Shown: positions 1 through 62,115 of the stretch, piece by piece | Layout of the letters: every line of letters begins with the position of its first letter | How positions within the stretch are numbered: the stretch's first letter is position 1 | Origin: Acidobacteriota bacterium | GTDB taxonomy: Bacteria; Acidobacteriota; CAIWXX01 | Direction: 5' to 3' | Assembly: GCA_016191015.1 (NCBI GenBank) | Contig: JACPPM010000301.1 | Span: 5,472 to 69,471 of the forward strand | Length of the DNA: 64,000 bases | The notes under the pieces: generated by a model | Seen by the model: the letters and a program-made list of their open reading frames with translations, nothing else | Database searches by the model: none | What the model was told of the DNA's origin: nothing | Position numbers and translations under genes: made by a program

Positions 1-239
1 AAAGCAAAAGTGAGCCGAAACGGCCCTCTCTGAAACAGAGGACCGAGGTGCTCGTGCGTGAGATGCTCGAGCGCGGCATCTACCTGGAGGAGGCAAAGAA
101 GGAGTTCGAGAAATCCTTCCTGTCGCTCGCCCTTGGCATGGCCTCGCAGAACCAGTGCAAGGCGGCCAAGATCCTGGGCCTCCACCGGAACACGCTTCGT
201 TCCAAACTTCGCCTCTTCGGGCTCGACCACAAGAAGTAG
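1..239 (+). CDS. C-terminal fragment of a sigma-54-dependent Fis-family transcriptional regulator (HTH_8 domain); 5' end lies outside the window
   Basis: Open frame from position 3 to TAG at 237-239. AAKILGLHRNTLRSKL is the Fis-type HTH typical of NtrC-family activators. Confidence 0.6.
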   Translation, partial: SKSEPKRPSLKQRTEVLVREMLERGIYLEEAKKEFEKSFLSLALGMASQNQCKAAKILGLHRNTLRSKLRLFGLDHKK

Positions 240-375
240 CCATTAGTCTTTAGCCCTTAGCCATTAGCTGAGGAACGGGATTCAGGTCATCGGCCGCGGC
301 AGACGGACCACGCCCGAGTGCTATTCGCGCCGGTGGGCCGTTCGGAGCTAGTAGCTAACGGCTAAGGGCTAGCAA
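239..375. repeat. Extragenic palindrome, TTAGCC-heptamer type (copy A). Left arm 239-271 overlaps the TAG stop; right arm 345-375; spacer about 73 bp
   Basis: Left arm agccattagtctttagcccttagccattagctg. The reverse complement of right arm gagctagtagctaacggctaagggctagcaa matches it with 1-2 mismatches. Period-7 NNNTTAG units. Confidence 0.8.
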
Positions 376-459
376 TCTGAATCGCCCCGCTACACTGAGG
401 CATATCTTCAGTGCTCAAGTTTCTCTTGCCAAAACGGTGTCGCTCAAGTAAAAACGGAG

Positions 460-1950
460 TTGGAGACAGTCCGACCGATGTCCGTGCATATAGTTGAAAT
501 CCCTCACCGCGATCTGTTCGTGCGCCTCTTCGGCCCCAATGCGTATGTTGTCGGAGGCCATGTCCGCGACCTGCTGATGGGAAGGGTCAGCAAGGATTTC
601 GACATCCTGATCGCCGGCTTGCCGCTGGAAGAGATCGCCGAGCGGCTGAGGCTGCACGGGCGCCTCGACCTGGTCGGCAGGAGCTTCGGCGTGGTGAAGT
701 TCACGACCAGCGAAGGTGTCGAGTCGCCGATCACATACGATGTGGCGCTGCCCCGGACTGACTACGTCTCCGACTCGAAGACGCGTGACCACCGAGGTTT
801 CGTGGTCCGGGCCGACCCATCGCTTCCGGTGACTGCCGATCTCGAGCGGCGGGACTTCACGATCAACAGCATGGCCATGAGGATATCGGACGGCGAGCTG
901 ATTGACCCGCTCGGCGGGGCGCAAGACATCCAACGGCGGTTGATCCGCATCACGAACCCGGCCACCTTCACGGATGATCCCCTGCGCGTTGTGCGGCTCG
1001 CCCGTTTCGCATCGACTCTGAGCTTCGCTGTCGACCCGGGCCTTTATGAAATGTGCAAGGAGGTGGATCTGATCGGGCTGAGCGTCGAGCGGATTGCCGA
1101 CGAGATGACGAAGATGATCCTGCGTTCGCCCCGCCCCGGTGTCGGCTTCCAGCAGCTGCTGAAGGTGGGGGCACTGAAACAGCTCTTCCCCGAGCTCTAT
1201 GCAATGGCACTGTGCATCCAGGACGCCGTCTTCCATCCGGAAGCGGATGAATATGGGCATCACACGGTTTTTCATCACACGCTTCTGGTGATGGACCAGG
1301 CGCAGCGGCTTTCGGATCTGTTCGATCTGGACGCGCCGCGCCGGATGGTGATGGGGCTCTCAGCGCTCCTTCACGATGTCGCCAAGCCTCAGACGACGGC
1401 CTGGGAGTACAAGCACGGCAGGCTCTGCCTCACCTCGGCCAAGCATGACGTCCTGGGGGCGCAGATGGCCGAGCAGTTTTTAAAGCGGTTCAGAGTCTTC
1501 TCATATGAAGGGATCGATGTGCAGCAACTGGTGTGCTCAATCGTGAGAGCGCACTTGCGACCCCTTGAGTTATGGGCAAATCGGGACTCGGTCACAAAGA
1601 AGGCCTTCGCACGGCTCGCTACCGACGTGGATGGCGAGACCGATTTGCTGGTGCTCTTCGACCAGGCGGATCGGGCCGGGCGGCGTGAGGAGCTCATAGA
1701 AAAGCTCGACGACATCGCCGCGTGGCTCATGGCGACTTTTCGCGAATACAAGATCAGCCGCGAGACGCTGCGGCCGGTCGTCCATGGACGCGATCTGCTC
1801 GAGATCGGCTTCCTCCCGGGTCCCGAGATGGGACGGGTCCTGAAAGAGCTGCACGGCATGCAGATCGACGGAGTGTTCGAGACGCGTGAACAGGGCGTGG
1901 AATTGGCCCGAGGGGTCTCCTTGAGGCTTTTCGGCAGGGAAGTGTGTTGA
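460..1950 (+). CDS. cca: CCA-adding tRNA nucleotidyltransferase (poly(A) polymerase head domain plus HD domain)
   Basis: GGHVRDLLMG...DFDI nucleotidyltransferase motif, RRDFTINSMA, and an HD motif (HHTLLV...LLHDVAKP). Confidence 0.85.
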   Translation: METVRPMSVHIVEIPHRDLFVRLFGPNAYVVGGHVRDLLMGRVSKDFDILIAGLPLEEIAERLRLHGRLDLVGRSFGVVKFTTSEGVESPITYDVALPRTDYVSDSKTRDHRGFVVRADPSLPVTADLERRDFTINSMAMRISDGELIDPLGGAQDIQRRLIRITNPATFTDDPLRVVRLARFASTLSFAVDPGLYEMCKEVDLIGLSVERIADEMTKMILRSPRPGVGFQQLLKVGALKQLFPELYAMALCIQDAVFHPEADEYGHHTVFHHTLLVMDQAQRLSDLFDLDAPRRMVMGLSALLHDVAKPQTTAWEYKHGRLCLTSAKHDVLGAQMAEQFLKRFRVFSYEGIDVQQLVCSIVRAHLRPLELWANRDSVTKKAFARLATDVDGETDLLVLFDQADRAGRREELIEKLDDIAAWLMATFREYKISRETLRPVVHGRDLLEIGFLPGPEMGRVLKELHGMQIDGVFETREQGVELARGVSLRLFGREVC

Positions 1951-2651: not shown

Positions 2652-2652
2652 G

Positions 2653-4080: not shown

Positions 4081-4387
4081 GTTGACCGTCGCGCGTGAGG
4101 GCGGTAGGCGCCGACCCAGGCAGCTGTGTCGATCCGTCTGGTCCTGCTTTCCTGAAAGGCGCCCGTAGGGCTCTAGGCTCGTCGCAGGATTGCGCCTGCG
4201 ACGAGAGGCCGCGTTGTGGCGCCGGGAGACCGGAAGGGAAAACTGCAGATTGCGCGGATTCCGCAGAGTTCCCGGAGCACGCATCTCGCTTCCGTTTGCG
4301 CTCAGCGGTCGGATCTCTGTAACGCCTCAGTGGAGTGGGGCGACTGTCCATCCTTGAACCAGACGTGGGCAAGTCCCCTTCCGGTCC

Positions 4388-4454
4388 AACGCAAAGACGC
4401 AAAGCCACCAAGATCGGTCCAGAGCTTCTTTGCGGCTTTGCGCCTTTGCGTTTG
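4388..4454. repeat. Palindrome with CGCAAAG(N) octamer-repeat arms (copy K)
   Basis: caacgcaaagacgcaaagcc ... ctttgcggctttgcgcctttgcgtttg; arms are reverse complements; 20 bp spacer. Confidence 0.7.
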
Positions 4455-4651
4455 AAAGGGTCTCGATACAATGCCGCTATCCCGACCTCGTCACAACCCA
4501 TGCGATCACCCCCACACCACTGAGGCACTACGGATCACTGAAATCTGCGGTTGTCCGGCTTCGGTCTCCTGATATAAGATCCCCTGCGGACTGATGGCAT
4601 TCCCGGTGATCTGCAAGCACTCTGAAAGGAGCATCCGAGGTGGGTAGGACG

Positions 4652-9388: not shown

Positions 9389-10306
9389 CTACATCTTCGA
9401 GAGTGCGTCGAGCATCAGCTTCGCTTGAGGCACATTCGGGTCGTTCGCTGGCGCGATCTGCAAGAATTTCTCGAATGTGGCTTTCGCCTCCGGTATCTTA
9501 CCCAGGTTCACGTACGCGGTTCCGAGCCAGTAGTGAGCGGAGGCGTGGTCAGGCTTGAGCTGGATTGCCTTTTCCCAGGCGGTGACGGCTTCCGGGATCC
9601 TGGAGTTGTTGAAATTCGCCGACCCCAGGTTGAAGAAGGTCTCGGGTTCGCCGGGGTCCACCTTCGCCGCCTGTTCGAAGGCATCGATGGCTGCCGGATA
9701 CTTCTTGAGATCCATGCTGACGTGTCCGAGATTGAACCACCCGGCAAAGCTCGACGGATCCGCCTGAGTGGCTCTCGCAAATGCGGCCTCGGCCTCGGCG
9801 AGTTTGTTCAGCTTCTCGAGGGCGAGGCCGAGACGGGTGAGGTAGGCGGGGTTGTCCGGCTCGGCCTCGAGCGCTCGGGCGAACGCCGCGACCGCCTCCT
9901 CGTGCTTCCCCTCTTCGAAGAGGGTTGTTCCCTGCATGGCGTCCTTTGTTCCGGGACTCTCTTTGACTGCAGCCATTTTCGGCATCTCGATGAGCTCGAG
10001 ATCGAGGACGGTCGCTTCGCCCAGCCCAACCTTCCACTCAGCGGACTGCGGAAGATAGCCCTCCATGCTGGCTTCGACAACGTACGTACCCACGGCCAGG
10101 CCAATTTGCGAGTAGAGCCCTTTCTTGTCGGTCTTCACATTGAAGGTGATCTTCGACGAGCCCTTGGCCGATATTTTGACGTTCGCCCCGGTCAGCGGCC
10201 CGATTCCCTTGGCTGTGACGGTACCCGTGAGCCGGCCGGTGGTGTCCGCGAAAGCGATGAATGCAAACAGGCACATCAGAGCCGTGACAAGAGTCTTCCT
10301 CATCAT
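9389..10306 (-). CDS. Secreted TPR-repeat protein with an N-terminal carboxypeptidase-regulatory-like (CarboxypepD_reg) beta-sandwich domain
   Basis: Signal peptide MMRKTLVTALMCLFAFIAFA preceded by a GGAGG SD. About 6 TPR repeats (AWxxLGxxY pattern). Start trimmed from 10438 to 10306 to avoid overlap with glyA. Confidence 0.75.
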   Translation of the reverse strand: MMRKTLVTALMCLFAFIAFADTTGRLTGTVTAKGIGPLTGANVKISAKGSSKITFNVKTDKKGLYSQIGLAVGTYVVEASMEGYLPQSAEWKVGLGEATVLDLELIEMPKMAAVKESPGTKDAMQGTTLFEEGKHEEAVAAFARALEAEPDNPAYLTRLGLALEKLNKLAEAEAAFARATQADPSSFAGWFNLGHVSMDLKKYPAAIDAFEQAAKVDPGEPETFFNLGSANFNNSRIPEAVTAWEKAIQLKPDHASAHYWLGTAYVNLGKIPEAKATFEKFLQIAPANDPNVPQAKLMLDALSKM

Positions 10307-12100: not shown

Positions 12101-12856
12101 ATGGCACAGTTGAAGGTCCTGGTCGTCGAGGACAGCCCGACGCAACAACTCAAGACTCGTCTTCCCTTACTCAATGCGGGCTACGAAGTGGTCGTCGCGG
12201 CAAACGGCGAGGAGGGGTACCAGGCCGCGCTGGCAAACAAGCCGTCCGTGATCCTGCTCGACATGGTCATGCCCGTTTGTGACGGACCCGGCATGCTGGC
12301 CAAGATCAAGGACGCTCCCGAGCTCCGCGACATTCCCGTGATCATGCTGACGGCCACCTCCGAATCAGAATCCATCATGAATGCGATTTCGATGGGGGCG
12401 AAGGACTATATAGTCAAGCCATTCTCGATCGAGGTGTTTGAACAGAAGCTGACCAAGTTCTTCCGCCATCTCAACCCCAATCTGAGCCAGACCGAACGGA
12501 TCGCGGCCGAGATCGACCGGAAGATCATCCGATACGACGAGTACGAGGGGGCGCACTTGTTCGAGGTCAAACCGGACAATATGAAGCTCGGCCTCAAGTT
12601 GGTCTTCTCCTATATCCGGCGCTTCCTGGCCATCGGCGAGCGTAATTTCGTGATCGACTTCTCTTCGTACCCGTCGCTTCCGGATGAGGCGATGACTACG
12701 CTCGTGGCCTGCATGTCCTCGCTGCAGAAGGGATCTGAGATCGTTCGCTTCATCGTGACGAATCCCAAGGTCCAAGGGCAGCTCCAAAGCGCGCCGGACA
12801 CGGCCTACGTCGGGATTCTGCGAAGTCGGAAAGAAGTCGTGCGGCACGGCTTCTGA
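12101..12856 (+). CDS. Response-regulator receiver domain fused to a STAS (anti-sigma-antagonist-like) domain
   Basis: KVLVVEDS...ILLDMVMP...DYIVKPF is a REC domain. The C-terminal FVIDFSSYPSLPDEAMTTLV region is STAS-like. Alternative start at 12065. Confidence 0.7.
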   Translation: MAQLKVLVVEDSPTQQLKTRLPLLNAGYEVVVAANGEEGYQAALANKPSVILLDMVMPVCDGPGMLAKIKDAPELRDIPVIMLTATSESESIMNAISMGAKDYIVKPFSIEVFEQKLTKFFRHLNPNLSQTERIAAEIDRKIIRYDEYEGAHLFEVKPDNMKLGLKLVFSYIRRFLAIGERNFVIDFSSYPSLPDEAMTTLVACMSSLQKGSEIVRFIVTNPKVQGQLQSAPDTAYVGILRSRKEVVRHGF

Positions 12857-13027
12857 GTTCAAAGTTCAAAGTTCAATGCTCCACCCCGGAACGGCGGGCG
12901 CCGGTGTGGGCCTGAGCGCCGTCGGTCCCGTCGCATGAACATATTGCGGTCTGGGCACTCTCGCTTCACCCGAATCACCCGGGGCGCCTCCGGGTACTTT
13001 GAACTTTGAACTTTGAACTTTGAACTT
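12855..13027. repeat. Extragenic palindrome, GTTCAAA-heptamer type (copy B), filling the whole intergenic space
   Basis: Left arm gagttcaaagttcaaagttcaatg overlaps the TGA stop at 12854-12856. Right arm ctttgaactttgaactttgaacttc runs into the start of the next ORF. Spacer about 118 bp. Confidence 0.85.
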
Positions 13028-14801
13028 CTTGCACTATGTTATCGCGGTGACAGAGCACCAGATTCGGAGTGATGCGGAATTCATCCTGAGGGCGAGCAAG
13101 GTCCTCAACTCGACACTGGATTTCGATGAGCTGCTGACGCGGATTGTTGAGCTCACGGCCGAGGCGGTCGGTGCCGAGACCGGTTCGCTCCTTCTCTACG
13201 ACGAACGGCGCGGCGGACTGATCTTCGAGGTCGCGTTGGGTGAGAAGGGGGATCTGATCAAGGAGTTCGTCGTCGGGCCGGGCCAAGGAGTGACGGGAAG
13301 GGTGTTCGAGACCGGAGAGCCTGCGGTCGTCAACGACACTCAGTCGTACGCCGCGTTCTCGGGGACGATCGACAAGAAGGTGGGGTTCGAGACCCGTTCG
13401 ATCCTTTGCGTTCCTCTCCTGCTGCGCGGAAGGACGATCGGCGTGGTCGAAGCGATCAACAAATCGCGGGCCCGGCTTTTCGACGATCAGGATCTGCGGA
13501 TGATGCGATCTCTCGCGGACCTCATCGCCATCGCGATCGACAACAGCCGACTGTACTTGCAGGCCAGGTTGGAGAGGCTCGAGAACCAGTCGCTTCTGGA
13601 AGTGGCCAAGCGGGTCAACTCGGCCCTGAAGCTCGACCAGGTCCTCCAGATGATCGCCGACTCGATGCATCAGGTCATCCACTTCGACGCGCTGGCCATC
13701 TACCTGGTCAGACCAGGCACACGGGACATAGACCGCCTCATCCTGAACGGCTTCGACGAGCACCAGCACGATTCTGTGAGGCTGAAGGTGGGAGAAGGGA
13801 TCGTGGGGTGGTGCATCAGCAATGGCGAGTCCACTCTCGTGGCCGATGTTTCCCGCGACCCACGATACGTGAAGGCGCGCGACGAGACGCGTTCAGAGAT
13901 TGTCGCGGCTCTGTTTGTCGGGGGCCGCTGCATCGGTGCGATCAACCTCGAGAGCAACCGCATGTCCGCCTGGGATCAGCACCAGCTCGAGCTGCTCCGC
14001 GCATTTGCCGGACAGGTGTCTATCGCGATCGAGAAGGCGATGCTGCACCAGGAGCTCCTCGAGAAGAAGGAGCTCGAGCAGGAGCTCAACGTGGCCCACC
14101 GCATCCAGCGCACGTTCCTGCCGCGTCACCAGCCCGTCATCCCTGGCTACGATGTCGCCGGCCTGAACATCCCATCCGAGAAAGTCGGCGGTGACTACTA
14201 CGATTTCATCCGGATCATCGACACACAGCTCGGAATCGTGATCTCCGACGTCTCCGGAAAGGGGATCCCGGCCGCGCTGATCATGGCGAGCTTCAGGGCG
14301 AGCCTGTTGGCCGAAATCCGGAACAACTTCGCCATCCGCACGATCATGGCCAAGGTCGGGAAGCTTCTGCGGGAGTCCATTGAGCCACACCACTTCGTGA
14401 CGGCTCTGTACGGAGTCCTCGACATCCCCAACCGTGTTTTCACTTACGCAAACGCGGGGCACAACCCGGCAATCCTCATCCGCGCAGATGCGAGTGTCAA
14501 GTTCCTCAAAGACGGCGGCCTGCCCCTCTGCGTCCTCGAACAAGCCACCTACGCTGAAAAGCGCTTGCAACTGCGGGTCGGAGACCTCCTCGTGTTCTAC
14601 ACCGACGGAGTGACCGAGGCGTTCAACGAGCAGGAGGAGGAGTTCGGGCTCGAACGCCTCATCGCGGCTCTCCTGGCCGTCTACCCTCTGAGCGCTCGAG
14701 ACATCGTGGGGAGTGTCGCACAGGTCATCAGGGAATTCAACGGTACCGCTAGCCCCTCCGATGACCTCACTCTCGTAGCCCTCAAGTGCGTCCCCATTTG
14801 A
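13020..14801 (+). CDS. GAF-GAF-PP2C (SpoIIE/RsbU-like) serine phosphatase
   Basis: Two GAF domains (LLYDERRGGLIF...; ...IGAINLES...) followed by a PP2C domain (GGDYYDF...ISDVSGKG...YTDG). Start is uncertain: TTG 13020 lies inside the repeat, and GTG 13050 is possible. Confidence 0.85.
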   Translation: MNFLHYVIAVTEHQIRSDAEFILRASKVLNSTLDFDELLTRIVELTAEAVGAETGSLLLYDERRGGLIFEVALGEKGDLIKEFVVGPGQGVTGRVFETGEPAVVNDTQSYAAFSGTIDKKVGFETRSILCVPLLLRGRTIGVVEAINKSRARLFDDQDLRMMRSLADLIAIAIDNSRLYLQARLERLENQSLLEVAKRVNSALKLDQVLQMIADSMHQVIHFDALAIYLVRPGTRDIDRLILNGFDEHQHDSVRLKVGEGIVGWCISNGESTLVADVSRDPRYVKARDETRSEIVAALFVGGRCIGAINLESNRMSAWDQHQLELLRAFAGQVSIAIEKAMLHQELLEKKELEQELNVAHRIQRTFLPRHQPVIPGYDVAGLNIPSEKVGGDYYDFIRIIDTQLGIVISDVSGKGIPAALIMASFRASLLAEIRNNFAIRTIMAKVGKLLRESIEPHHFVTALYGVLDIPNRVFTYANAGHNPAILIRADASVKFLKDGGLPLCVLEQATYAEKRLQLRVGDLLVFYTDGVTEAFNEQEEEFGLERLIAALLAVYPLSARDIVGSVAQVIREFNGTASPSDDLTLVALKCVPI

Positions 14802-14999
14802 GGGACTAGGGGCTAGGGACTAGGGTCCGGACCGATCTTGGCGCGGATCGGACACCACGTGGGTGCGACGCTTGCCTGACCCCCGGTGGGGTGGCTTCTT
14901 GATGGTCCGGAGATCGGTTCAATCCTTCACGGTGCTGACAATCTCTTGTCAAGGTCTCGGCGCTGTGGGCGTAGTCCCCAGCCCCTAGCCCCTAGCGCC
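14802..14999. repeat. Extragenic palindrome, CTAGCCC-heptamer type (copy C)
   Basis: Left arm gggactaggggctagggactagggtcc begins 1 bp after the TGA stop. Right arm gtagtccccagcccctagcccctagcgcc. About 142 bp spacer that holds a perfect TGACAA-N4-TTGTCA palindrome. Confidence 0.85.
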
Positions 15000-15280
15000 T
15001 ACTTTTCATTCTGGCAGCCGGCACGGGCGTTATAGGAATGTATGCCTGTGCGGACGGGTCTGGAGAATTGACGAACCCCTCGTTGCCACGCATCGTGAAG
15101 GCCAGGACTTTTGGCTCTCTGGCGGGAGCTGGGTCTTCAGCCGCGGGCTCGGCGTGCCCCACAGAGATTCCGAAGCGCATACAGAGCACCACAGAAGACG
15201 CGCTCCCTCAGAGAGATCATGAGAGGGGCGATTCCGGTATTCCAATCAACTTATCCCATGGGGAGAGGAGACCAGGCGAG

Positions 15281-20600: not shown

Positions 20601-20871
20601 TGTCATCGATACGGGCATTGGAATGACGTCCGATCAAATCGCGCGGCTCTTCCAGGCGTACACTCAAGCTGGCGCAGATACGAGCCGCAAGTACGGCGGC
20701 ACCGGCCTCGGGCTCGTCATCAGCAGGCGTCTCGCCCAAATGATGGGCGGCGAGATCTCGGTGGAAAGCGCGCCGGGCAAAGGCTCCACGTTCACCCTGA
20801 CGCTCCCGGCGCGAACACCGGCGGGCGAAAAGGAGGATCGCGGTGGCTCGAGGATGGCCGCTGCACAGTAG
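17659..20871 (+). CDS. Hybrid sensor histidine kinase with periplasmic two-component-regulator propeller repeats and a Y_Y_Y domain, one TM segment, HisKA and HATPase_c
   Basis: About 14 Reg_prop repeats (GxLWIGTxxGGL); a TM helix near aa 750; H-box [10 protein letters not shown]; a G-box ATPase domain. Confidence 0.85.
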
Positions 20872-21065
20872 TCCACACTAGTCCGGAGGCGCACCGCCGC
20901 GCACGCAGGTCCCATCCTCACTACCACCAAGTCACCATGGCACCAAGAAACTACCAAGGGGTTTCTCTCCCTCATTCGTGCCCCTTGATGTCTTCGTGGT
21001 CCGGACGTCAGCTCCGGCATCCAGACGGTTGAGATGACCTGGGCCAGGAATGAGCGAGAAGGCAC

Positions 21066-26872: not shown

Positions 26873-26901
26873 CAACGCAAAGGCGCAAAGACGCAAAGAA
26901 G
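26873..26901. repeat. Single-arm CGCAAAG(N) octamer repeat array, 7 bp after the radical-SAM gene stop
   Basis: caacgcaaaggcgcaaagacgcaaagaag; no inverted partner found nearby. Confidence 0.6.
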
Positions 26902-31849: not shown

Positions 31850-32086
31850 CATGAAATGGCAAGAACCTCGCCGGGGCGAGATCTTCCGGACTCCTCTCAG
31901 GAAAGCAGGAAGTGAGGAAGGCAGGAAAGGACCCGTCATATCGGACGCTCAGGGTGGCACGGACCGCTCTCACGCTCTCACGCTCCAGGCGCGCGAAGCG
32001 CGCCGGACGCTCTCACGCGCGGCCGGTGTTACGACGGCGGTGGTGGCCGGGGCGAGGCGCTGACAGTGAACGAATCGAAGGTGGTG

Positions 32087-32908: not shown

Positions 32909-32917
32909 CGATGAATC

Positions 32918-33019
32918 AGAGTTCAAAGTTCAAAGTTCCAAGTTCAAGCCCGCGTCGATCCTGTGGGCGTGGACCTGCGGGTCCCGTTGAGCTCTGAACT
33001 TTGAACTTTGAACTCATGC
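32918..33019. repeat. Extragenic palindrome, GTTCAAA-heptamer type (copy D)
   Basis: agagttcaaagttcaaagttccaagttcaag ... ctgaactttgaactttgaactcatgc; begins 10 bp after the mqnD stop and ends 31 bp before the pyk start. Confidence 0.85.
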
Positions 33020-34472: not shown

Positions 34473-34477
34473 GGCCG

Positions 34478-37265: not shown

Positions 37266-37485
37266 GTGACCTCACCGTCGACGCGGAAGGCGTGGAGCCG
37301 AAGCCCTGCGCGGAGCGAAGGGGCCCACAGTAACCCCGGGTACGATCAGAAAGTGAAAGGGTGAAAGACCGGAAGCGTGGAGCGATTCGGACCTGTCTCA
37401 CCCGCCCTGCGTCGGCCACGCCAGCTTCCATGGCGTGCCTACGCGCCCGATGCAAGCAGATCCTCGCAGAATCCCACGATCGCCT

Positions 37486-37517
37486 CCGGCCCTAGCCCCT
37501 AGCCCCCAGCCCCTCTC
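37486..37517. repeat. Single-arm CTAGCCC heptamer array abutting the dapF stop (copy E)
   Basis: ccggccctagcccctagcccccagcccctctc lies immediately 3' of the dapF TGA on the minus strand. Confidence 0.7.
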
Positions 37518-38372
37518 TCAAGAGGGATCGGGCCATGCGCCGTCGAACACGATCTCGGCCGGGCCTGTGACGAAGAGTGGCTCGCCCTGGTGCCACTCGA
37601 CCAGCATGTCCCCGCCCGCCGCGTGGATCGTCACGCTCTCCCCCACAAGTCCCTGGACCATCGCGGCCGTGGCGGCAGCGGATGCTCCTGTCCCGGATGA
37701 GAGCGTCTCCCCCGCGCCGCGCTCCCAAAAGACCACGATCATCTCCTCCTTGTTCAGCACCTGGACGAACTCCACATTCGTTTTGTTCGGGAACAAGGGA
37801 TGGTTTTCGACGACGGGTCCCAGGTCGCGAACTGGGATTCCCTCGAGGGATTCGAAAAACAGAACGCAGTGTGGGTTGCCCATCGAAACGGCCGTGATGG
37901 GGAGGCTGGAATTCCCGATTGGCAGAGGGAAATTCACGACCCGATCAGTCCCATCGGGGGACTTGAAGGGGATCGAATCCGGTGCGAGGACCGGATTTCC
38001 CATGTCGGCGATGAACGAGTACCGATGGGCGTGATGGCTGAGAAGCTCCAGCTGGCACCAGCCGCTCTGCGTAGTGATCTCCACCTTCGGTGTCTTGACG
38101 AGACCGCGGTGGAAAAGGAAGGCGGCGCAGCAGCGAAGTCCATTGCCTGAGGTCTCGGCTTCCGTGCCGTCACTGTTGAAGATCCTCAGGAAGTAGGCTC
38201 CGCGCTTCGTCACATGCGGGAAGATCAAGAGCATCCCGTCAGCACCGACGCCGTAGTGCCGGTTGCAGATCTTCAGGGACATATCGGAGAAGGAATCGGT
38301 CTGAGCGGGGACGTCCTTCTCTTCGACGATGATGAAATCGTTCCCGAGTCCCTGGGCCTTGGTGAACTTCAT
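37518..38372 (-). CDS. dapF: Diaminopimelate epimerase
   Basis: MKFTKAQGLGNDFIIVE N-terminus and a second active-site Cys region. Confidence 0.9.
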   Translation of the reverse strand: MKFTKAQGLGNDFIIVEEKDVPAQTDSFSDMSLKICNRHYGVGADGMLLIFPHVTKRGAYFLRIFNSDGTEAETSGNGLRCCAAFLFHRGLVKTPKVEITTQSGWCQLELLSHHAHRYSFIADMGNPVLAPDSIPFKSPDGTDRVVNFPLPIGNSSLPITAVSMGNPHCVLFFESLEGIPVRDLGPVVENHPLFPNKTNVEFVQVLNKEEMIVVFWERGAGETLSSGTGASAAATAAMVQGLVGESVTIHAAGGDMLVEWHQGEPLFVTGPAEIVFDGAWPDPS

Positions 38373-40396: not shown

Positions 40397-40837
40397 ATGA
40401 AGACATATTTCCCGAAAGATGGGGACGTGAAGCTCGGCTGGAAACTACTGAACGCCGAAAACGTTGTGCTCGGAAGGCTCGCCACAGTTGCAGCGCGCAT
40501 CCTGTTGGGGAAAGACAAGCCGCAGTACACGCCCTTTCTCGCTGTGGGCGACGGGGTGATCATCGTCAATGCCGACAAGATCAAAGTGACCGGCAAGAAG
40601 TTGACGGACAAGAAGTACTATCACTACAGTGGTTACCCGGGGGGCATGAAAGAGACGAGCCTGGAGGCTCTCTTCGCCCAATCGCCGGCCAAGGTCGTGG
40701 AAGAGGCGATTTACGGAATGTTGCCGAAGAACAAGCTTGGCAAGCAGCTCCGGACTCGCATCAAAGTCTACACCGGCTCGGATCATCCCCACGCAGCCCA
40801 GACACCGGAGCCGGTTGCGCTCCCGACCCGATACTAG
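40397..40837 (+). CDS. rplM: 50S ribosomal protein L13
   Basis: MKTYFPKDGDVKLGWKLLNAENVVLGRLAT. Confidence 0.95.
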   Translation: MKTYFPKDGDVKLGWKLLNAENVVLGRLATVAARILLGKDKPQYTPFLAVGDGVIIVNADKIKVTGKKLTDKKYYHYSGYPGGMKETSLEALFAQSPAKVVEEAIYGMLPKNKLGKQLRTRIKVYTGSDHPHAAQTPEPVALPTRY

Positions 40838-42824: not shown

Positions 42825-43547
42825 ATGGCCGAGAGCGCGACCGCCGTCTACAAACGGATCCTCCTAAAACTGTCCGGCGAGGCGCTGATCGGGGAGAGAG
42901 GCTACGGCATCGATTCTGCGATGACACAGTCGATCGCGGGAGAGATCCGCGAGGTCAGGGAGCTCGGCACCGAGGTTGCGATCGTCATCGGCGGAGGCAA
43001 CATTTTTCGTGGCGTAGCCGCCACTGCGGCCGGCATGGAGCGCGTCGCGGGGGATCACATGGGCATGTTGGCGACGGTCATCAACGGTATCGCCCTCCAG
43101 GATGCGCTCGAGAAACAGAATGTCTTCACGCGCCTCATGACCGCCATCGAGATGCGCGAGGTCGCGGAACCCTACATCAGAAGACGCGCGGTGAGACACC
43201 TCGAAAAGGGCCGTGTGGTCATTCTCGCGGGCGGCACGGGCAATCCGTATTTCACGACCGATACTGCCGCGGCGCTGCGCGCGATGGAGATCAAGGCTGA
43301 AGCGATCCTGAAGGCGACCCGAGTTGATGGCGTCTACACGGCCGATCCGAAGCTCGACAAGACTGCAATGAAGATCGACCAGATCAGCCATCTCGATGTC
43401 CTCAAGCGAGGGCTAAAGGTCATGGATGCCACCGCCATCTCGCTTTGTATGGACAACCAACTCCCCATTCGTGTCTTCGATCTGCGGGTTCGAGGGAACA
43501 TTCTCAGAATCGTGCGCGGCGAGCCGATCGGCTCGTCAGTGTCTTGA
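42825..43547 (+). CDS. pyrH: UMP kinase
   Basis: [12 protein letters not shown]...GGGNIFRG. Confidence 0.95.
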
Positions 43548-43548
43548 T

Positions 43549-43668
43549 CAGCCATTAGCCCTTAGCTCCGGACCGGACTTGCGCGTGAGCACGAAATAGA
43601 TGGCGGGCGAACACATGTTGCGCCTCTGCGCTAAAGGATAACGGCTACGGGCTAATCGCTGACGGCTG
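43549..43668. repeat. Extragenic palindrome, TTAGCC type (copy F), 2 bp after the pyrH stop
   Basis: cagccattagcccttagctccgg ... taacggctacgggctaatcgctgacggctg. Confidence 0.8.
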
Positions 43669-43748
43669 CTTCGCCGCCGTCCGCGGTTTTGTCCGCACGC
43701 GCGCCCCTGTGATAGAATCTCATTTCTTCTGCAGACGAGGAGGCGGAA

Positions 43749-44303
43749 ATGAAGGACGTCATCACCAGGAACAAGGCCAGGATGGAGCAGTCCATTGACG
43801 TGTTCAAACGTGAGCTGGCCGGGGTGCGGAGCGGCCGGGCGACAATCAGCATTCTCGACGGGATTCACGTCGAATACTACGGGACAATGACGCCGCTGAA
43901 TCAGGTGGCGACTCTGCAGGCTCCCGATGCCAATCTCCTGACCGCCCAGCCCTGGGACCTCAGCCTTCTCGCCGCGATCGAAAAGGCGATCCGCAAGAGC
44001 GATCTGGACCTGAATCCGGCCAACGATGGAAAGGTCATCAAAATCCCCATCCCGCCGCTCAACGAAGAACGCCGGCAGAAGCTGATCAAGCACATCCACA
44101 AGCTCGCAGAGGACTCGCGCAACGGTCTCCGTATGATCCGCCGGGATGCAAACGAGGAGATCAAGAAACTCGAAAAAGAGAAGAAGATCAGCCAGGATGA
44201 CGAGCGTCGCGGTCTCGAGCAGATCCAGAAACTCACCGACGACCACACCACCAGGATCGAAGAGCTGCTCAAGAAGAAGGAACAGGATCTCAAGACTGTT
44301 TAG
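43749..44303 (+). CDS. frr: Ribosome recycling factor
   Basis: Full-length Frr similarity. Confidence 0.95.
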   Translation: MKDVITRNKARMEQSIDVFKRELAGVRSGRATISILDGIHVEYYGTMTPLNQVATLQAPDANLLTAQPWDLSLLAAIEKAIRKSDLDLNPANDGKVIKIPIPPLNEERRQKLIKHIHKLAEDSRNGLRMIRRDANEEIKKLEKEKKISQDDERRGLEQIQKLTDDHTTRIEELLKKKEQDLKTV

Positions 44304-44305
44304 AG

Positions 44306-44455
44306 CTGGCAGCCGTTAGCCCGAAGCGTCTGGTTCGGAGACTCTGGGCGAACGGATACGGGCTCTGCTGGCATTCCCGCTGCAGCGAGAGGGCCGCCGT
44401 TACAGGTCCGGTCCGGAGCTAATAGCTAACGGCTGATAGCTAATGGCTAACCAGC
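44306..44455. repeat. Extragenic palindrome, TTAGCC type (copy G), 3 bp after the frr stop
   Basis: ctggcagccgttagcccgaagc ... ggagctaatagctaacggctgatagctaatggctaaccagc. The right arm overlaps the 3' end of the convergent gene. Confidence 0.8.
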
Positions 44456-49546: not shown

Positions 49547-49580
49547 GGCGGGAGGGCCACGCGGCTCTCCCGCCGTTTTT
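49547..49580 (+). terminator. Rho-independent terminator after groEL
   Basis: ggcgggagggccacgcggctctcccgcc followed by gttttt. Confidence 0.6.
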
Positions 49581-54408: not shown

Positions 54409-54575
54409 GTGGAGCGTAGAGCGTGGAGCGTGGAGCGTGGAGCATGCAGGTAGTGGCGAAGCAGGGTCGTGCACGATGACGGATGCCTACAGGGATCAGG
54501 AACCCGAATCGTCTGGTCCGGCCTAGCCCCTAGCCCCTAGTCCCTGGTCCCTAGTCCCAAGTCCCTAGCCCCTGG
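54409..54575. repeat. Composite array: (GGAGCGT)x5 at 54409-54448, then (CTAGYCC)x7 at 54522-54575 abutting the stop of the upstream minus-strand gene (copy H)
   Basis: ggtggagcgtagagcgtggagcgtggagcgtggagc ... tccggcctagcccctagcccctagtccctggtccctagtcccaagtccctagcccctgg. Confidence 0.8.
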
Positions 54576-54579
54576 ATCG

Positions 54580-56190
54580 TCACGCGAATCGTTTGTTCGT
54601 CACGAAATCGGACATCAACGATGCGAGCTGGACGGGTCTGTCGGTCTTGACGGGAAACCCGATCTTGACCTCCTCCGCCTCCAAAACCACACTCATACGT
54701 GGCCTCGCCATCTCCCCCTGTTTCTCGCCGATCGTGATCGACAGATTTCGGATCTGGGGGTAGGTCATCTTCCGGTTCACCGAACCATTCGAGAAGACGA
54801 GGGATTTCTCGGTGACAAAGAAGGACCCGGCGACCTTGCTGTCCCGCAGTTCGAGCTCGGCCCGTTCCCCCCACCACAGCCGGGGCGCAACAGATCCCAT
54901 GTAGACCGTGCCTTCCCCTCGCAGCAACGGGAAGCGGCGGGTGACCTTCTCCGGCACGCGGGTGATTCCCAGCTTGCGCAACCCCTCCTCGAACTCGCGA
55001 TCCACGATCACCTGCCTGCCAGGCAGGGGATATCCACAGTGGAAGCACCCCGAGCTTTCGGCGGGATTGCGGCGCTGACATCGAGGGCATGATTGGAAGA
55101 CGAGGAATCCGCAGAAGGCGCATCGCGCGCTGGGGCTGCCGACATGCTGGCAGGAGGGGCACTGAACCTGTTCCTGCTCGATCTGCTTCTCGGTCTTGTT
55201 GCCGAGCGATTGTCCGCACTGGGGGCAGCTCTCATCGGTCGCCTTCACCCGCTTGCCGCAGCCGGAGCACTGATACGTTCGGCGCTTGTGGCCCTTCGAT
55301 TCCATGAAATTGAAATAGTGAAAAAGCTCGCCGCTCCTCGTCATGTCGTTCGTCGCTTGCGACACCTCACCGAAATCGATCTTCTGACTCCGCAAGCTAT
55401 GACCGACAAGCAGTGAGAGGTCGGCGATCGAGCAGATCACGCGCGGGACCCCCTGGCTGAACCGGTGAATGCCTTCGATCGCCGTGGCTGTGAAGACCTC
55501 CCGATCGAGCTGCCCTGCTGCACGGACGCGGTACTTGATGAGGTCGCCGGTGTCACGCAGATCGAGGTTCTTGAGGAAGAACCGGACGGGTAGCCGCTGC
55601 CAGAATTCAGGCATCTTCTTGACCGCGCCTTCCAGCGGCTTCTGTCCAGAAAAGACGAAGGAGAGCAGGAAGGTATCGGAGACACAGAAGTTGAGGAGGA
55701 TCCGGAGCTCCTGCAGGATGTCGGGTTTGTGGACCAGCATCTGGCCTTCATCGACGATGACCAGCGCTTTCGTGCCGGCGTGATGCAGCTCTTCGAGCTT
55801 CACCCTGAGAGCATTCAGGTTGTCGATCTTCTCTTTGCGGACGCGAGCGACCCCGAGCTGTCTGGCGATCTCCGCGATCATCTGATTGACGGTGAGGGTC
55901 GGGTGATCGATGAAGGCGATCTTGATGTTCCCTTCGTACTCCTCGGTCAACTCCTCTACAAGTCTGCGCAGGATCGATGTCTTCCCATCCCCGGCGTTTT
56001 CCGAGATCAGAAGTACTCCACCCTTGTTCGACACCACGCCATACTTGAGGCGCATCAGCGCCTCCTGGTGCTGAGCGCTGAGGAACAGCATGTCCGGGTC
56101 CGGGGAGAGCGAAAAGGGGTGCCGGGCAAACCCCCAGTAAGAGAGGTACTCTGGGACCATTATCCGTTCCAAAAAAGCAAGCCACGGCAT
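54580..56190 (-). CDS. ExeA/GspA-like AAA ATPase fused to three zinc-ribbon modules and a C-terminal PH-like domain
   Basis: YWGFARHPFSLSPDPDMLFLSAQHQEALMRL plus the Walker A GDGKTS is the ExeA signature. Three CxxC...CxxC ribbons. The C-terminal domain of about 150 aa is unassigned. Confidence 0.7.
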   Translation of the reverse strand: MPWLAFLERIMVPEYLSYWGFARHPFSLSPDPDMLFLSAQHQEALMRLKYGVVSNKGGVLLISENAGDGKTSILRRLVEELTEEYEGNIKIAFIDHPTLTVNQMIAEIARQLGVARVRKEKIDNLNALRVKLEELHHAGTKALVIVDEGQMLVHKPDILQELRILLNFCVSDTFLLSFVFSGQKPLEGAVKKMPEFWQRLPVRFFLKNLDLRDTGDLIKYRVRAAGQLDREVFTATAIEGIHRFSQGVPRVICSIADLSLLVGHSLRSQKIDFGEVSQATNDMTRSGELFHYFNFMESKGHKRRTYQCSGCGKRVKATDESCPQCGQSLGNKTEKQIEQEQVQCPSCQHVGSPSARCAFCGFLVFQSCPRCQRRNPAESSGCFHCGYPLPGRQVIVDREFEEGLRKLGITRVPEKVTRRFPLLRGEGTVYMGSVAPRLWWGERAELELRDSKVAGSFFVTEKSLVFSNGSVNRKMTYPQIRNLSITIGEKQGEMARPRMSVVLEAEEVKIGFPVKTDRPVQLASLMSDFVTNKRFA

Positions 56191-59863: not shown

Positions 59864-59867
59864 CTTT

Positions 59868-59920
59868 TGGAACTTTGAACTTTGAACTTTGAACTTTGAA
59901 CTTTGAACTTTGAACTCATC
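59868..59920. repeat. (TTTGAAC)x7 single-arm array between the TetR and ADH genes (copy I)
   Basis: ttggaactttgaac... x7, ending in aactcatcatgc; shares its tail with copy D. Confidence 0.85.
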
Positions 59921-59940
59921 ATGCGATCGTGGAGGCACTC

Positions 59941-60963: not shown

Positions 60964-60994
60964 GAGAGGCAGCTGGCCCGAGAAGGAGGTTTTT

Positions 60995-61957
60995 ATGACA
61001 TATTTCGAACCCAAATCCCCCGGAGAATTCGGATTCAAGGACATCATCTATGAGAAGAAGGACGGTGTGGCGCGCGTCACGATCAACCGTCCCAAGTTTT
61101 ACAACGCCTATTCCTCGCTGGCGCTCGAGGAGATGACGAAGGCCTTCACGGACGCGTCATGGGACGACTCGATTGCGGTCGTTGTGTTGACGGGCGCAGG
61201 GGACAAGGCCTTCTGCACCGGTGGCGACGTGAAGGAGTACGCGACCAGCTACACGCGCCGGCCGCACGACTACTGGAAATGGATGGGACTGTTCAATGGG
61301 GCACACGATGTGCTGCGCAACATCGGCAAGCCGACGATTGCCCGGTTGAATGGAATGGTGGTTGGAGGCGGCAACGAATTCAACATGGCCTGCGATCTGG
61401 CAGTGGCGGCCGAGCACGTCGTGATTCGGCAGGTGGGTCCGCGGGTGGGCTCGGTCCCGGCCGGGGGTGCCACCCAGTGGCTCCCGATCATGGTCGGCGA
61501 TCGGCGCGCGCGTTGGATGCTCTACATGTGCGAAGAGCTCGATGCAACGACCGCGCTCGACTGGGGTCTCGTCAACTTCGTCGTTCCTCTGGACAAGCTG
61601 GATGAGAAGGTCAACGAGATCTGCGAAAAGCTGAAGGACAAGTTTCCCGAGTGCCTTCGCTATACCAAGCAGCAGACGAACTTCTGGAAGGATCTTTCCT
61701 GGCACACAACGATTGGTCACGCACGCGATTGGCTGTCGCTGCACTATCTCTCGGCCGAGGTGCACGAGGGGATGAACTCATTCGTCGAGAAGCGCCAACC
61801 GGACTATCGCGGGATGCGGCAGAAGGCCGCTGAAGGGAAGAGTAGCGAGTACGTCTGGGGGCCATACGCGAAGGTTTGCGGGAAATGCGGGGCGAAATAC
61901 ATTCCGGAGGACTTCAAGTTCTGCGGAGCGTGTGGGGAGGCGTTGGGGAGCAGTTAG
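60995..61957 (+). CDS. MenB/BadI-family crotonase (1,4-dihydroxy-2-naphthoyl-CoA-synthase-like) with a C-terminal CxxC...CxxC zinc ribbon
   Basis: DIIYEKKDGVARVTINRP, LTGAGDKAFCTGGD and EGMNSFVEKRQPDY track MenB closely. Extra tail CGKCGAKYIPEDFKFCGACG. Confidence 0.75.
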   Translation: MTYFEPKSPGEFGFKDIIYEKKDGVARVTINRPKFYNAYSSLALEEMTKAFTDASWDDSIAVVVLTGAGDKAFCTGGDVKEYATSYTRRPHDYWKWMGLFNGAHDVLRNIGKPTIARLNGMVVGGGNEFNMACDLAVAAEHVVIRQVGPRVGSVPAGGATQWLPIMVGDRRARWMLYMCEELDATTALDWGLVNFVVPLDKLDEKVNEICEKLKDKFPECLRYTKQQTNFWKDLSWHTTIGHARDWLSLHYLSAEVHEGMNSFVEKRQPDYRGMRQKAAEGKSSEYVWGPYAKVCGKCGAKYIPEDFKFCGACGEALGSS

Positions 61958-62115
61958 CAATTAGCCCTTTGCCGTTAGCTATTAGCTTCGAGCGGTCGTC
62001 CCCGTCTGAATGCCGGTCGCCGGCCGCTGGGAGCGTCGGCGCCGGGATGGTGCTCATCACACCCATGACCCGGGGACAACCGCACGGAGCTAATGGCTGA
62101 ACGCGAACGGCTACT
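61951..62115. repeat. Extragenic palindrome, TTAGCC type (copy J), between convergent genes
   Basis: cagttagcaattagccctttgccgttagctattagcttc ... ggagctaatggctgaacgcgaacggctac. The left arm contains the crotonase TAG stop and the right arm contains the acs stop. Confidence 0.8.

Follow-up and report, generated by a model that had tools for sequence, protein, structure and literature searches.

Tandem repeats with a heptameric unit are known from the intergenic regions of several bacterial groups. In Xanthomonas, GGGAATC repeats are present about 186 times per genome, form 70-75 convergent pairs and are 89-93% intergenic, lying on average 28 nt from the upstream ORF vs 160 nt from the downstream ORF (PMC4692102). 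No function was found for these heptamers or for those of Nostoc (Rehm et al. 2015, PMC4692102). The cyanobacterial STRR repeats, with 7-bp units, form hairpins between hupS and hupL, for which roles in transcript stability and translational coupling have been proposed but not demonstrated (PMC2670836). A further heptamer, TAACTGA, occurs as direct repeats in Beggiatoaceae, cyanobacteria and Bacteroidetes (MacGregor 2015, PMC4679880).

Here, we analyze a window of 64,000 nucleotides from an uncultured Acidobacteriota lineage, in which a first-pass annotation had listed twelve repeat sites abutting stop codons and had regarded their architecture as matching no described class. This last view does not stand, since the paired GGGAATC repeats of Xanthomonas and the STRR hairpins of cyanobacteria share the design (PMC4692102, PMC2670836). 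Tandem units of 7 nt, occasionally 8 nt, occur in the window far above chance, in non-coding DNA and nearer to the end of the upstream ORF; they fall into a few families of heterogeneous units with a conserved core, and convergent pairs able to form stem-loops are frequent. The elements thus very probably constitute an STRR-like heptad-repeat system.

Results

Heptad arrays and their unit families

A strict scan of the window returned ten period-7 arrays and one period-8 array, while 20 Markov-1 shuffles gave an expectation of 0.0 for period 7, which dominates among periods 4 to 12. The arrays were detected independently by TRF. All twelve listed sites (12/12) were recovered at their positions, and similar arrays beyond that list lie at 31898-32016 and 20864-20947 (Table 1). 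Every site is non-coding, being placed between Pfam-supported genes. Base composition departed from the earlier estimates of about 65% GC for the genome and 43% for the arms: the window has 61.4% GC, the arms average 50.6% (range 28-76%), and the spacers between them 66.6%.

Table 1. Repeat elements of the window, with their parts, their relation to stop codons and their folding
Site	Coordinates	Strand	Unit family	Parts	Stop codon and setting	Folding
A	237..375	+	T[TC]AGC[CT]N	left arm 237-269; GC-rich spacer; CGGAGCT junction 343-349; right arm 346-373	TAG stop 237-239 serves as first unit, in phase	dG -64.6, z -4.2
K	4385..4455	+	CGCAAAGN octamer	arms 4385-4413 and 4427-4455, 13-23 nt apart	nearest credible stop ~305 nt away; nested in second inverted repeat, 4316-4340 / 4510-4534	
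B	12851..13027	+	GTTCAAA	left arm 12851-12876; 119-nt spacer (71% GC); right arm 12994-13027, extending into start region of next gene	TGA stop 12854-56 in first, degenerate unit TTCTGAG	z -5.2
C	14799..15001	+	GGGRCTA/TAGYCCC	G-rich arm 14801-14825; TCCGGACC junction 14826-14833; C-rich arm 14972-15001	TGA stop 14799-801	
26873 site	26873..26901	+	CGCAAAGN	single array	10 nt past TGA stop 26863-65	no hairpin
31896 site	31896..32016	+	two different octamers	CAGGAAAG x4 at 31898-31929; CGCTCTCA at 31965-31985 plus 32006-32016; CCGGA immediately 5' of first array	between two menaquinone genes	no hairpin
D	32916..33017	+	GTTCAAA	arms 32919-32947 and 32987-33015; 39-nt spacer (77% GC)	8-11 nt past TGA stop 32906-08	z -7.2
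E	37476..37520	-	GGGGCTA (minus-strand sense)	single array, then CCGGA (37476-80)	4 nt past dapF TGA stop 37518-20	no hairpin
F	43545..43669	+	T[TC]AGC[CT]N	left arm 43548-43566; TCCGGACCGGAC 43567-43578; right arm 43640-43669	TGA stop 43545-47; between pyrH and predicted frr promoter	
G	44301..44455	.	T[TC]AGC[CT]N	junction TCCGGTCCGGAGC at 44407-44419	entire spacer between convergent frr and DUF8173 gene; arms contain both TAG stops, 44301-03 and minus-strand 44447-49	
H	54409..54582	-	GGGRCTA (minus-strand sense); GGAGCGT	GGGRCTA array 54512-54575, then CCGGA (54507-11); GGAGCGT array 54409-54443, unrelated and non-complementary to the first	6 nt past TGA stop 54580-82	no hairpin; z +3.6 (plus strand), +0.8 (minus strand)
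I	59864..59919	+	GAACTTT	perfect single array, (GAACTTT)x6.7	between TetR TGA stop 59861-63 and ADH start ~59941	no hairpin
J	61953..62113	.	T[TC]AGC[CT]N		between convergent genes; both TAG stops (61955-57, minus-strand 62111-13) in phase with arm units	dG -90, z -7

At least five unrelated unit families occur together in the window, and many more in other loci. Units of the T[TC]AGC-YN, GGG-R-CTA, GTTCAAA and CGCAAAG-N families each present a conserved core of 5-7 nt with one or two free positions. Over 34 units of the T[TC]AGC family, information content amounts to 1.4-1.7 bits at positions 3-5 and to 0.08 bits at position 7; the GGGRCTA and CGCAAAGN units follow the same pattern. Neighboring units differ almost at random at the free position or positions, to which the variation is confined. 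Read directly, the GGGRCTA family appears to be G4-capable (four or more G3+ tracts separated by loops of 1-7 nt), with four tracts in the left arm of C, four in E and seven in H; in these three elements the G-rich strand is the coding strand, downstream of the ORF. Rfam covariance models gave no match at the gathering score, and the sole match at E<=1 was weak, unrelated and located at 40393-40496.

The copies had been described as homologous elements rather than chance tracts, and this is borne out: they fall into homologous families, with the same order of variant units in their arms and with common junction motifs. The arms of A, J and G are 92-100% identical over 17-26 nt, F and G share 91% identity over 32 nt with the junction included, and the 26873 array matches the reverse complement of the right arm of K at 96% over 28 nt. 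The TCCGG/CCGGA junction is likewise real, bordering 9 of 23 arms on their inner side vs 4.7% of random 18-nt windows, and B, D and I have defined outer ends (...TTTGAACTC[A/T]). Beyond arms and this short junction the copies have nothing in common, their spacers being unrelated among genomic copies, as the first reading had noticed.

Position relative to stop codons

Every copy had been placed on or within about 10 bp of a stop codon. This holds for 11 of the 12 sites, where the stop lies inside the array or 0-11 nt before it, and fails for K; the placement of the stop within the first repeat unit was confirmed for A and B, and both stops of J are in phase with its arm units. Enrichment at gene 3' ends, which had been proposed as a check, was found in related loci: in 854 kb of Acidobacteriota sequence, 17 of 34 arrays in co-directional spacers lie at most 14 nt from the stop, with about 10% expected. 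Phylum-wide, an array lies at a median distance of 17.5 nt from the stop and 63.5 nt from the next start. Across loci, the stop codon is often the first unit of the array, and when all loci with the T[TC]AGC family are taken together, it is in phase with the TAG of the unit in 61 of 93 cases vs 14% expected. The first unit resembles the last heptamer of the gene itself in several loci (e.g., CGAGTGA in L058 and CGTAAAT in L014), and 16-nt tandem duplications span the pyrH stop in L055 and L035.

Arm pairing and folding

The inverted second array annotated at eight sites is present, as found for A, K, B, C, D and G by inverted-pair search and for F and J by hand alignment, with loops of 13-150 nt; E, I and the 26873 site are single arrays. 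The inverted array of the same family usually lies at the opposite end of the spacer, so that one long hairpin can form from the intergenic region. Folding of each arm-spacer-arm, a further check proposed at the outset, gave hairpins at all eight paired sites, with z from -3.0 to -8.7 over both strands for A, B, C, D, J and K and weaker values for F and G (-1.2 to -3.5), but not at H, the 31896 site or the single arrays.

Both strands fold about equally well, and many arm pairs are exact inverted copies, even in variant units. On the sense strand, G·U mismatches between arms are no more frequent than A·C mismatches (9 vs 13 in genomes, 5 vs 7 in phage). Selection or action at the RNA level thus has no positive sequence evidence, and, since the two strands also fold alike, nothing singles out the coding-strand RNA.

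Occurrence in relatives and phages

The architecture recurs in many other Acidobacteriota loci, which carry 7.4 arrays per 100 kb vs about 2 in other phyla. The T[TC]AGC[CT]N family is present in Terriglobales, and its T[TC]AGC core spans Acidobacteriota classes and phages. In L058, as at G and J, an element fills the spacer between convergent genes, while L214 carries a long array of about 25 units. The only other contigs of the same organism (L001, L162 and L163) are 100% identical to the window, and a metagenome scan returned no relative above 48%. Arrays are patchily distributed and almost lacking in L002 and L003, the closest relatives. Elements are gained or lost with flanking genes kept, as had been anticipated: F and G are absent from L002, the closest syntenic relative, and are therefore dispensable at their sites. 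The pyrH-frr spacer of L007, L014, L010, L011 and L012 contains an orthologous hairpin, built from different units in different species groups. Its two arms have changed together (10 of 18 pairs compensatory), so that position and arm pairing are kept across five species despite unit turnover.

The T[TC]AGC[CT]N family is also packed into IMG/VR phage contigs, reaching about 20 copies in one compact 36-kb contig. In an HK97-like phage structural operon, the element occupies eight of nine spacers and TAG is the stop codon in seven of nine, the layout being stop-array-GC hairpin-array-SD-ATG. A 30-nt core is conserved in more than 30 copies, its asymmetric center is found in both orientations relative to transcription, and no target-site duplication was seen in the phage family, although the core is conserved. 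In the phage, mismatched positions between arms mostly coincide with the free position of the unit, which indicates that the core is kept rather than full pairing. Simple unmasking of a ribosome-binding site is unsupported, as the phage Shine-Dalgarno sequence lies outside the stem.

Discussion

Comparison with described systems

The Xanthomonas GGGAATC and Nostoc GGGGA(C/T)T repeats resemble the window's elements in having 7-nt units with a core and free positions, written (GGGANTN)n, in being about 90% intergenic and near the end of the upstream ORF, and in forming convergent pairs able to fold into stem-loops. In both, repeats are rare between divergent genes, tied to housekeeping genes and variable between close species. 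Those heptamers are G4-capable, as the window's GGGRCTA units are likewise predicted to be. In contrast to Xanthomonas and Nostoc, the window's genome has several unrelated families, most of them not G-rich; its elements often start with the stop codon as first unit, have the TCCGG junction in common and include one family that is also found in phages. STRR repeats are similar in their 7-bp units, their several families per genome, their intergenic position and their hairpins between adjacent cistrons, but belong to a different phylum with different unit sequences, and neither stop-codon phasing nor a junction motif is described for them in the accessible sources. TAACTGA is also a heptamer with stop triplets, abundant between genes, common to distant lineages and proposed to bind a post-transcriptional regulator, whereas most of its repeats are found immediately before start codons and inverted pairs are almost absent (169 direct sets vs one indirect; PMC4679880).

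The REP, BIME and REPIN elements of enterobacteria and pseudomonads share with these elements an extragenic, dispersed, hairpin-forming nature and a 3' untranslated or intercistronic location. Liang, Rudd and Deutscher reportedly found in 2015 that terminating ribosomes stall at REPs located no more than about 15 nt from a stop codon. A REP is an imperfect palindrome, fixed in length and sequence, with a conserved 5' tetranucleotide, mobilized by RAYT, whereas an arm in the window is a direct tandem repeat of variable length and unit number with no internal palindrome. The elements also differ from MITEs, as their spacers are unrelated and the flanks of A, B, D and F have no consistent target-site duplication. 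CRISPR arrays have at least three successive repeats of 24-48 nt, interspersed with unique spacers of comparable length; here, the units are contiguous and 7-8 nt long, with at most two arrays per site, inverted rather than direct. The HutP site of the Bacillus hut operon, in which UAG triplets stand 4 nt apart within the 5' part of an intercistronic hairpin, has the same 7-nt period of UAG directly after the stop codon of the upstream gene. Unlike the window's elements, it is one Firmicutes locus rather than a dispersed family, with two sets of three UAG triplets, a known protein and no inverted array.

A possible hairpin at gene boundaries, and its alternatives

As the most likely mode of action we tentatively propose, from sequence features, a cis-acting gene-boundary structure on the transcript. 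We infer that the active form is an RNA hairpin rather than DNA or a bound factor, and that its effect would be on termination, coupling or stability; roles at mRNA 3' ends, as the first-pass annotation suggested, appear plausible. The base of this hairpin would have the stop codon on its 5' side and, on its 3' side, either the stop of a convergent gene or the sequence immediately preceding the next gene, with the GC-rich, locus-specific middle at the tip. A terminating ribosome, covering about 12-15 nt past the stop, would have to open the stem base, while the closed stem would draw stop and next start together, shield the untranslated spacer and possibly leave a protective 3' hairpin. The arrays may be made and resized by replication slippage, and the families may spread between loci through copying of arms. 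In favor of this reading count the enrichment of the arrays, their position at or in stop codons, the core and free positions of their units, the folding of the paired sites, the compensatory changes in the orthologous pyrH-frr hairpin, the layout of the phage operon and the like placement of the STRR and Xanthomonas repeats. Against action as a transcript hairpin count the lack of G·U bias, the similar folding of both strands, the phage Shine-Dalgarno sequence outside the stem, both orientations of the asymmetric center in phages, the single and mixed arrays that form no hairpin, the distance of K from a stop and the absence of F and G from L002.

A neutral or selfish by-product of mutation, without function, is a rather unlikely source of these arrays. 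It would invoke heptamer slippage (Mrazek's polymerase-footprint idea), fold-back template switching that copies an array across a hairpin already present, and survival just after stops as the only harmless place, and would account for the long or perfect arrays of L214 and I, the exact inverted arm pairs with their variant units, the lack of G·U bias, the near absence from L002 and L003, the first units that echo a gene's last heptamer in L058 and L014, and the duplications over the pyrH stop in L055 and L035; heptamers are, moreover, the commonest long simple repeats in many bacteria, according to the part of PMC4679880 that cites Mrazek 2007. Yet slippage should give identical neighbors and decay should hit all positions, while the variation is limited to one or two, and uniform mutational input leaves unexplained the half of the arrays that lie within 14 nt of a stop. 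The same T[TC]AGC core across Acidobacteriota classes and phages, the load of copies in a compact phage contig and the position and pairing kept over five species also speak against it. Dispersal as non-autonomous mobile elements (REPIN-, BIME- or MITE-like) with heptad-array arms that insert at stop codons is quite improbable. The dispersed arms with the same variant order (A/J/G, F/G and K/26873), the defined outer ends of B, D and I, the common TCCGG junction, whole-element presence or absence relative to L002 and the phage core in both orientations would fit such movement, but the unrelated genomic spacers, the flanks without consistent target-site duplication and the direct-repeat arm do not, the genes of the window include neither a transposase nor a RAYT-like gene, and a load of one element in almost all spacers of a phage late operon has no parallel among known MITEs. 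Transcription terminators, intrinsic or bidirectional, are a highly improbable explanation, even though the elements are placed just past stop codons, where terminators sit, occupy convergent-gene spacers (G, J and L058) and, in F, precede a predicted frr promoter. The frr 3' flank, which has a canonical terminator in other Acidobacteriota, has a heptad hairpin in L025, L041, L044 and the window, and a T5 run follows the right arm in the Terriglobales L025 and L041 (only a T-rich cttcttcttc in L044). Most right arms, however, have no following U-tract, loops of 40-150 nt greatly exceed those of intrinsic terminators, and many elements lie inside likely operons, the phage structural operon included. 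A terminator scan flagged none of the elements, yet found canonical terminators at 49547-49574 and 50162-50137, and the combination of GC-rich stem, short loop and U-tract that defines an intrinsic terminator is not seen in them.

Control of termination, read-through or coupling at gene ends could also be exerted by a factor that reads the heptads, with one unit per subunit at 7-nt spacing, although we regard this as unlikely. HutP, whose binding site within an intercistronic terminator consists of UAG-N4 triplets, and TRAP offer RNA models, and the omega protein of pSM19035, a ribbon-helix-helix protein on contiguous 7-bp heptads, direct or inverted, offers a DNA model. Units with a conserved core and free positions, phage mismatches that spare the core at the expense of full pairing, and UAG every 7 nt from the stop codon onward would suit such a reader, as would the absence of G·U bias, which fits DNA or single-strand binding. 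At least five unrelated families in one window would in turn call for numerous factors or for one of relaxed specificity, the window's genes yielded no candidate protein, and HutP-type proteins are, to our knowledge, a Firmicutes family. The T[TC]AGC[CT]N family is common to distant Acidobacteriota and to phages, which would be expected to exploit a host factor. By analogy with the known heptad binders, its heptads might serve as the array recognized by an RNA- or DNA-binding reader, ring-shaped or filament-forming, at gene boundaries throughout Acidobacteriota, adopted by phages for nearly every cistron junction of the structural operon, a proposal that we consider decidedly unlikely. If true, the heptad reader would add a level of gene-boundary control across the whole phylum, tied to translation termination.

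Repeat arrays at gene ends

The window is ordinary chromosomal DNA. Its genes include those for a sigma-54 regulator, a heptosyltransferase, a response regulator, a GAF-SpoIIE phosphatase and acetyl-CoA synthetase, together with cca, glyA, menaquinone (futalosine) genes, ubiX/ubiD, pyk, dapF, ksgA, rplM, rpsB-tsf-pyrH-frr and groES-groEL, and none encodes a transposase, RAYT or HutP-like protein. By RRF comparison, the nearest genomes, at 80-83% amino-acid identity, are two MAGs of uncultured Acidobacteriota. Portions of the window are matched at 100% identity by three Logan contigs, from runs SRR12113390 and SRR12113401; two further exact look-ups gave no match, and the best relative in a dapF query of metagenomes reached at most 48% identity.

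All of the repeat sites listed in the first-pass annotation, elements A-K and the array at 26873, are present, and the arrays are also recovered by TRF and by a strict self-match scan, which detected ten period-7 arrays and one period-8 array in the window and none in Markov-1 shuffles. The eight sites said to carry an inverted partner array were found as well, A, K, B, C, D and G by search and F and J by alignment, with arm pairs of 17-39 nt. Placement at stop codons, claimed for every copy, stands for 11 of 12 sites, which begin 0-11 nt from a stop, and fails for K, whose nearest credible stop lies ~305 nt away. The stop falls inside the arm in A, B and J, as claimed, and also in G; in G and J, the two arms take in the ends of both convergent genes. 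The GC contents first given were wrong, the arms averaging 50.6% (range 28-76%), the spacers between them 66.6% and the window 61.4%.

For A, B, C, D, J and K, folding places a GC-rich and partly palindromic middle in a long hairpin closed by the arms. The z-scores of these elements run from -3.0 to -8.7 across both strands, which fold about equally well. Folding of F and G is weaker (z -1.2 to -3.5), and H and the 31896 site showed no fold on the same test. A G·U versus A·C asymmetry of arm mismatches, sought in the genomic arms to identify the functional strand, showed no bias. Inspection of the flanks of A, B, D and F showed no consistent target-site duplication, and Rfam returned no family for the elements at the gathering score or at E<=1. 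Separately, a sub-threshold c-di-GMP-I-GGC riboswitch match upstream of rplM (40393-40496; 22 bits vs a gathering score of 59, E 0.85) is most likely due to chance.

Unit grammar and additional repeats

An all-vs-all comparison of array-bearing spacers confined similarity to the arms and a few junction bases, in agreement with the proposal that the elements are homologous; the sequences between the arms are unrelated. A-right, J-left and G-right have a common order of variant units (92-100% over 17-26 nt), F-left matches G-right at 91% over 32 nt, TCCGGACCGGAC included, and K-right matches the 26873 array at 96% over 28 nt. The recurring TCCGG/CCGGA junction was likewise borne out, with 9 of 23 arms carrying it at their inner edge compared with 4.7% of random windows. 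Variation within families is restricted to particular unit positions. In T[TC]AGC[CT]N, positions 3-5 are near-invariant and position 7 is random (0.08 bits, 34 units); GGGRCTA varies chiefly at position 4, with a few changes at positions 3, 6 and 7; and CGCAAAGN varies at position 8 only.

Further repeats, and two canonical terminators, are listed in the table below. The second-family pattern has two exact matches in the window against 0.04 expected, and its inverted pair flanks K, which therefore sits inside a larger inverted repeat with 25-nt arms. Both K and this outer repeat fall in a 560-nt stretch (4081-4640) that has no credible ORF, lies upstream of a gene for a Zn-dependent dehydrogenase and could be a non-coding RNA or leader. 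The CGCTCYC units of the extra arrays resemble the reverse complement of the GGAGCGT array of H, and the inverted repeat at 29690 is not built of heptamers. The Logan contig L162 (SRR12113401) ends at window position 54515, just beyond the last unit of the H array on its inner side, within the CCGGACC junction. Arrays may be break points for short-read assemblies and could therefore be under-represented in MAGs.

Additional repeats and intrinsic terminators in the window
Feature	Position	Strand	Description
Second repeat family, GCCTCAGTG[G/T]AG[T/C]GGGGCGA	382-401	-	Directly after element A
Second repeat family, GCCTCAGTG[G/T]AG[T/C]GGGGCGA	4324-4343	+	Inverted partner at 4510-4534; brackets K
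Short arrays with TCCGGAGG junction	20860-20960		Between convergent genes; absent from first-pass annotation
Inverted repeat	29690-29777		31-nt arms, 87% complementary, 26-nt loop; spacer before menaquinone-biosynthesis gene
8-nt arrays, CAGGAAAG x4 and CGCTCTCA x2.6	31896-32016		Between two menaquinone genes; absent from first-pass annotation
Intrinsic terminator	49547-49574	+	10-12-bp GC stem then T-run; after groEL
Intrinsic terminator	50162-50137	-	10-12-bp GC stem then T-run; facing strand

Distribution and turnover in Acidobacteriota

The same architecture recurs in 20-kb loci fetched around frr from Acidobacteriota MAGs (Pyrinomonadaceae-like, Terriglobales, Holophagae and others) and from one Thermomicrobiales MAG. 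Period-7 array density is 7.4 per 100 kb in Acidobacteriota loci versus ~2 in other phyla, and T[TC]AGC-type runs were found in 9/47 Acidobacteriota loci versus 1/114 others. Of 34 arrays in co-directional spacers, 17 are no more than 14 nt from the stop (~10% expected). In at least 10 cases, the stop codon is part of the first unit. Within the window, five of the six stops adjoining T[TC]AGC arms are TAG, which makes up 42% of 48 stops in a rough gene list, a preference too marginal (p 0.02-0.05) to be accepted from the window alone. The phasing of this family on TAG is strong only across all loci collected: in 61 of 93 cases, an adjoining ORF ends with a stop that is in phase with the unit TAG (14% expected). 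A barrier of stops in all three frames was also considered as a common denominator; 33% of gene ends with an array have such stops within 33 nt, versus 2% of controls, and because only a third of these ends show them, we regard them as a by-product of units that contain stops.

Heptamer arrays are nearly absent from L002 and L003, the two closest relatives. In the syntenic L002 locus, the pyrH-frr spacer lacks F and keeps the frr promoter box, and a ferredoxin gene takes the place of G at the frr 3' flank. The elements therefore turn over while genes persist. The gene in question, a small 2x[4Fe-4S] ferredoxin, lies between frr and the DUF8173 gene in both relatives (L002 10650-10855, L003 10765-10970), where the window has only G. 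In five Pyrinomonadaceae-like MAGs, a pyrH-frr hairpin is kept, running from within the pyrH stop to shortly before the frr start, with units that differ between two species groups (CGTAAAT/AGTGAAT vs AGTGACA). Its arms have changed together, with compensatory changes in 10 of 18 predicted pairs. This is equivalent to one or a few concerted events, and complementarity has been kept, for whatever reason. Two other loci carry 16-nt tandem duplications spanning the pyrH stop (GCGCGCTTCATAGT x2 and TGAATAGCTGANCATN x2; L055 ~9900-9950 and L035 ~2900-2940), and tandem duplication across a stop codon is therefore not restricted to period 7.

A related element in phage operons

An exact scan of IMG/VR for four consecutive units (TTAGCYN x4) returned 75 stretches and two contigs of 57-60% GC packed with such arrays, IMGVR_UViG_3300021255_003533 (L264, L219, L267 and L247; ~20 exact matches) and IMGVR_UViG_3300028833_000521 (L241, L259, L269 and L273; ~14 exact matches), the latter encoding an integrase. 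One packed contig encodes an HK97-type major head protein, head protease, portal protein, large terminase and endolysin-like protein, and an element occupies eight of the nine spacers of its structural operon, in the order stop, (TTAGCTN)2-6, hairpin, (AGCTAAN)3-5, Shine-Dalgarno, ATG. The centre is a conserved GCGCGC-N4-GCGCGC hairpin with a AAGTNACTT motif, the core TTGGCGCGC-N4-GCGCGCCAAGTAACTT being conserved from copy to copy, and this asymmetric centre is found both with and against the direction of transcription. Seven of the nine upstream genes end in TAG, their reads all starting TAGCT, and in most the array continues directly from the stop. The arms differ chiefly at the free seventh position, and their mismatches show no G·U bias.

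Three other viral contigs (L203, L214 and L268) hold 10-15 paired heptamer arrays per 10-14 kb, in several unit families (GGAAATT, TTAAGAG, GGTGTCR, GCATCCY and GAGAGTG), one array reaching ~25 units. In viral contigs, the GTTCAAA unit forms mostly single arrays that bear no consistent relation to the elements of the window. A blastn search of GenBank phages, run with the low-complexity filter, gave no match to the phage element, and arrays are absent from MT836202, the nearest TerL relative in GenBank.

Discussion

To our knowledge, heptamer repeats have been noted as the commonest bacterial long simple repeat since 1990-2007, and a function has never been shown. In Xanthomonas, GGGAATC repeats number ~186 per genome, are 89-93% intergenic, have mean distances of 28 nt to the upstream ORF and 160 nt to the downstream one, and include 70-75 convergent, stem-loop-capable pairs with heterogeneous (GGGANTN)n units, for which that study found no function (PMC4692102). 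In cyanobacteria, the hupS-hupL spacer holds hairpins of STRR heptamers, with a suggested role in transcript stability or translational coupling (PMC2670836). The elements of the window resemble the former in their proximity to the upstream ORF, convergent pairs and heterogeneous units, and the latter in placing heptamer hairpins between adjacent genes. Their design is thus not new in kind, contrary to the initial claim that no class with such an architecture had been described, and they very probably belong to an STRR-like heptad-repeat system. Within the literature library searched, we found nothing relevant on Acidobacteria heptamer repeats, nor on T[TC]AGC or the other literal unit strings.

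As to mode of action, we tentatively favor, at somewhat less than even chances, a hairpin that would act in cis at the gene boundary and hold the stop codon in its base, with arms built from dispersed heptad families and arrays resized by slippage. In many genomes, heptamers outnumber all other long simple repeats, and polymerase slippage is their proposed cause, according to the summary of Mrazek 2007 in PMC4679880. Several features speak against mere slippage debris: the arrays are placed at stop codons and phased on them, their units combine a fixed core with free positions, position and arm complementarity are kept as units turn over, and a compact phage operon carries a high load of elements. 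An origin at the DNA level, a bound factor or a mobile family is still in play, given the lack of a strand-specific G·U signal, the many genomic arm pairs that are exact inverted copies, the patchy distribution, the perfect long arrays and the single arrays unable to pair. REP, MITE and CRISPR array identities were rejected on the defining features tested. Canonical terminators were likewise rejected, since most of the elements have no U-tract, and they form large loops and are missed by a terminator scan that detects true terminators at 49547 and 50162; the organism therefore does use ordinary terminators.

Even if the arrays were only mutational debris, they would matter for Acidobacteriota assembly and gene calling, because a Logan contig breaks at array H and long ORF calls extend into arms. 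Three traits, stop-codon phasing, a fixed core with free positions, and sharing between phylum and phage, make heptamer-repeat function testable. One family is common to a phylum of abundant soil bacteria and to phages, and in a phage it marks almost every structural-operon boundary. Questions of termination, coupling, RNA stability or a bound factor could be put in a compact system, either a phage operon with ~20 copies or a Terriglobales strain in culture.
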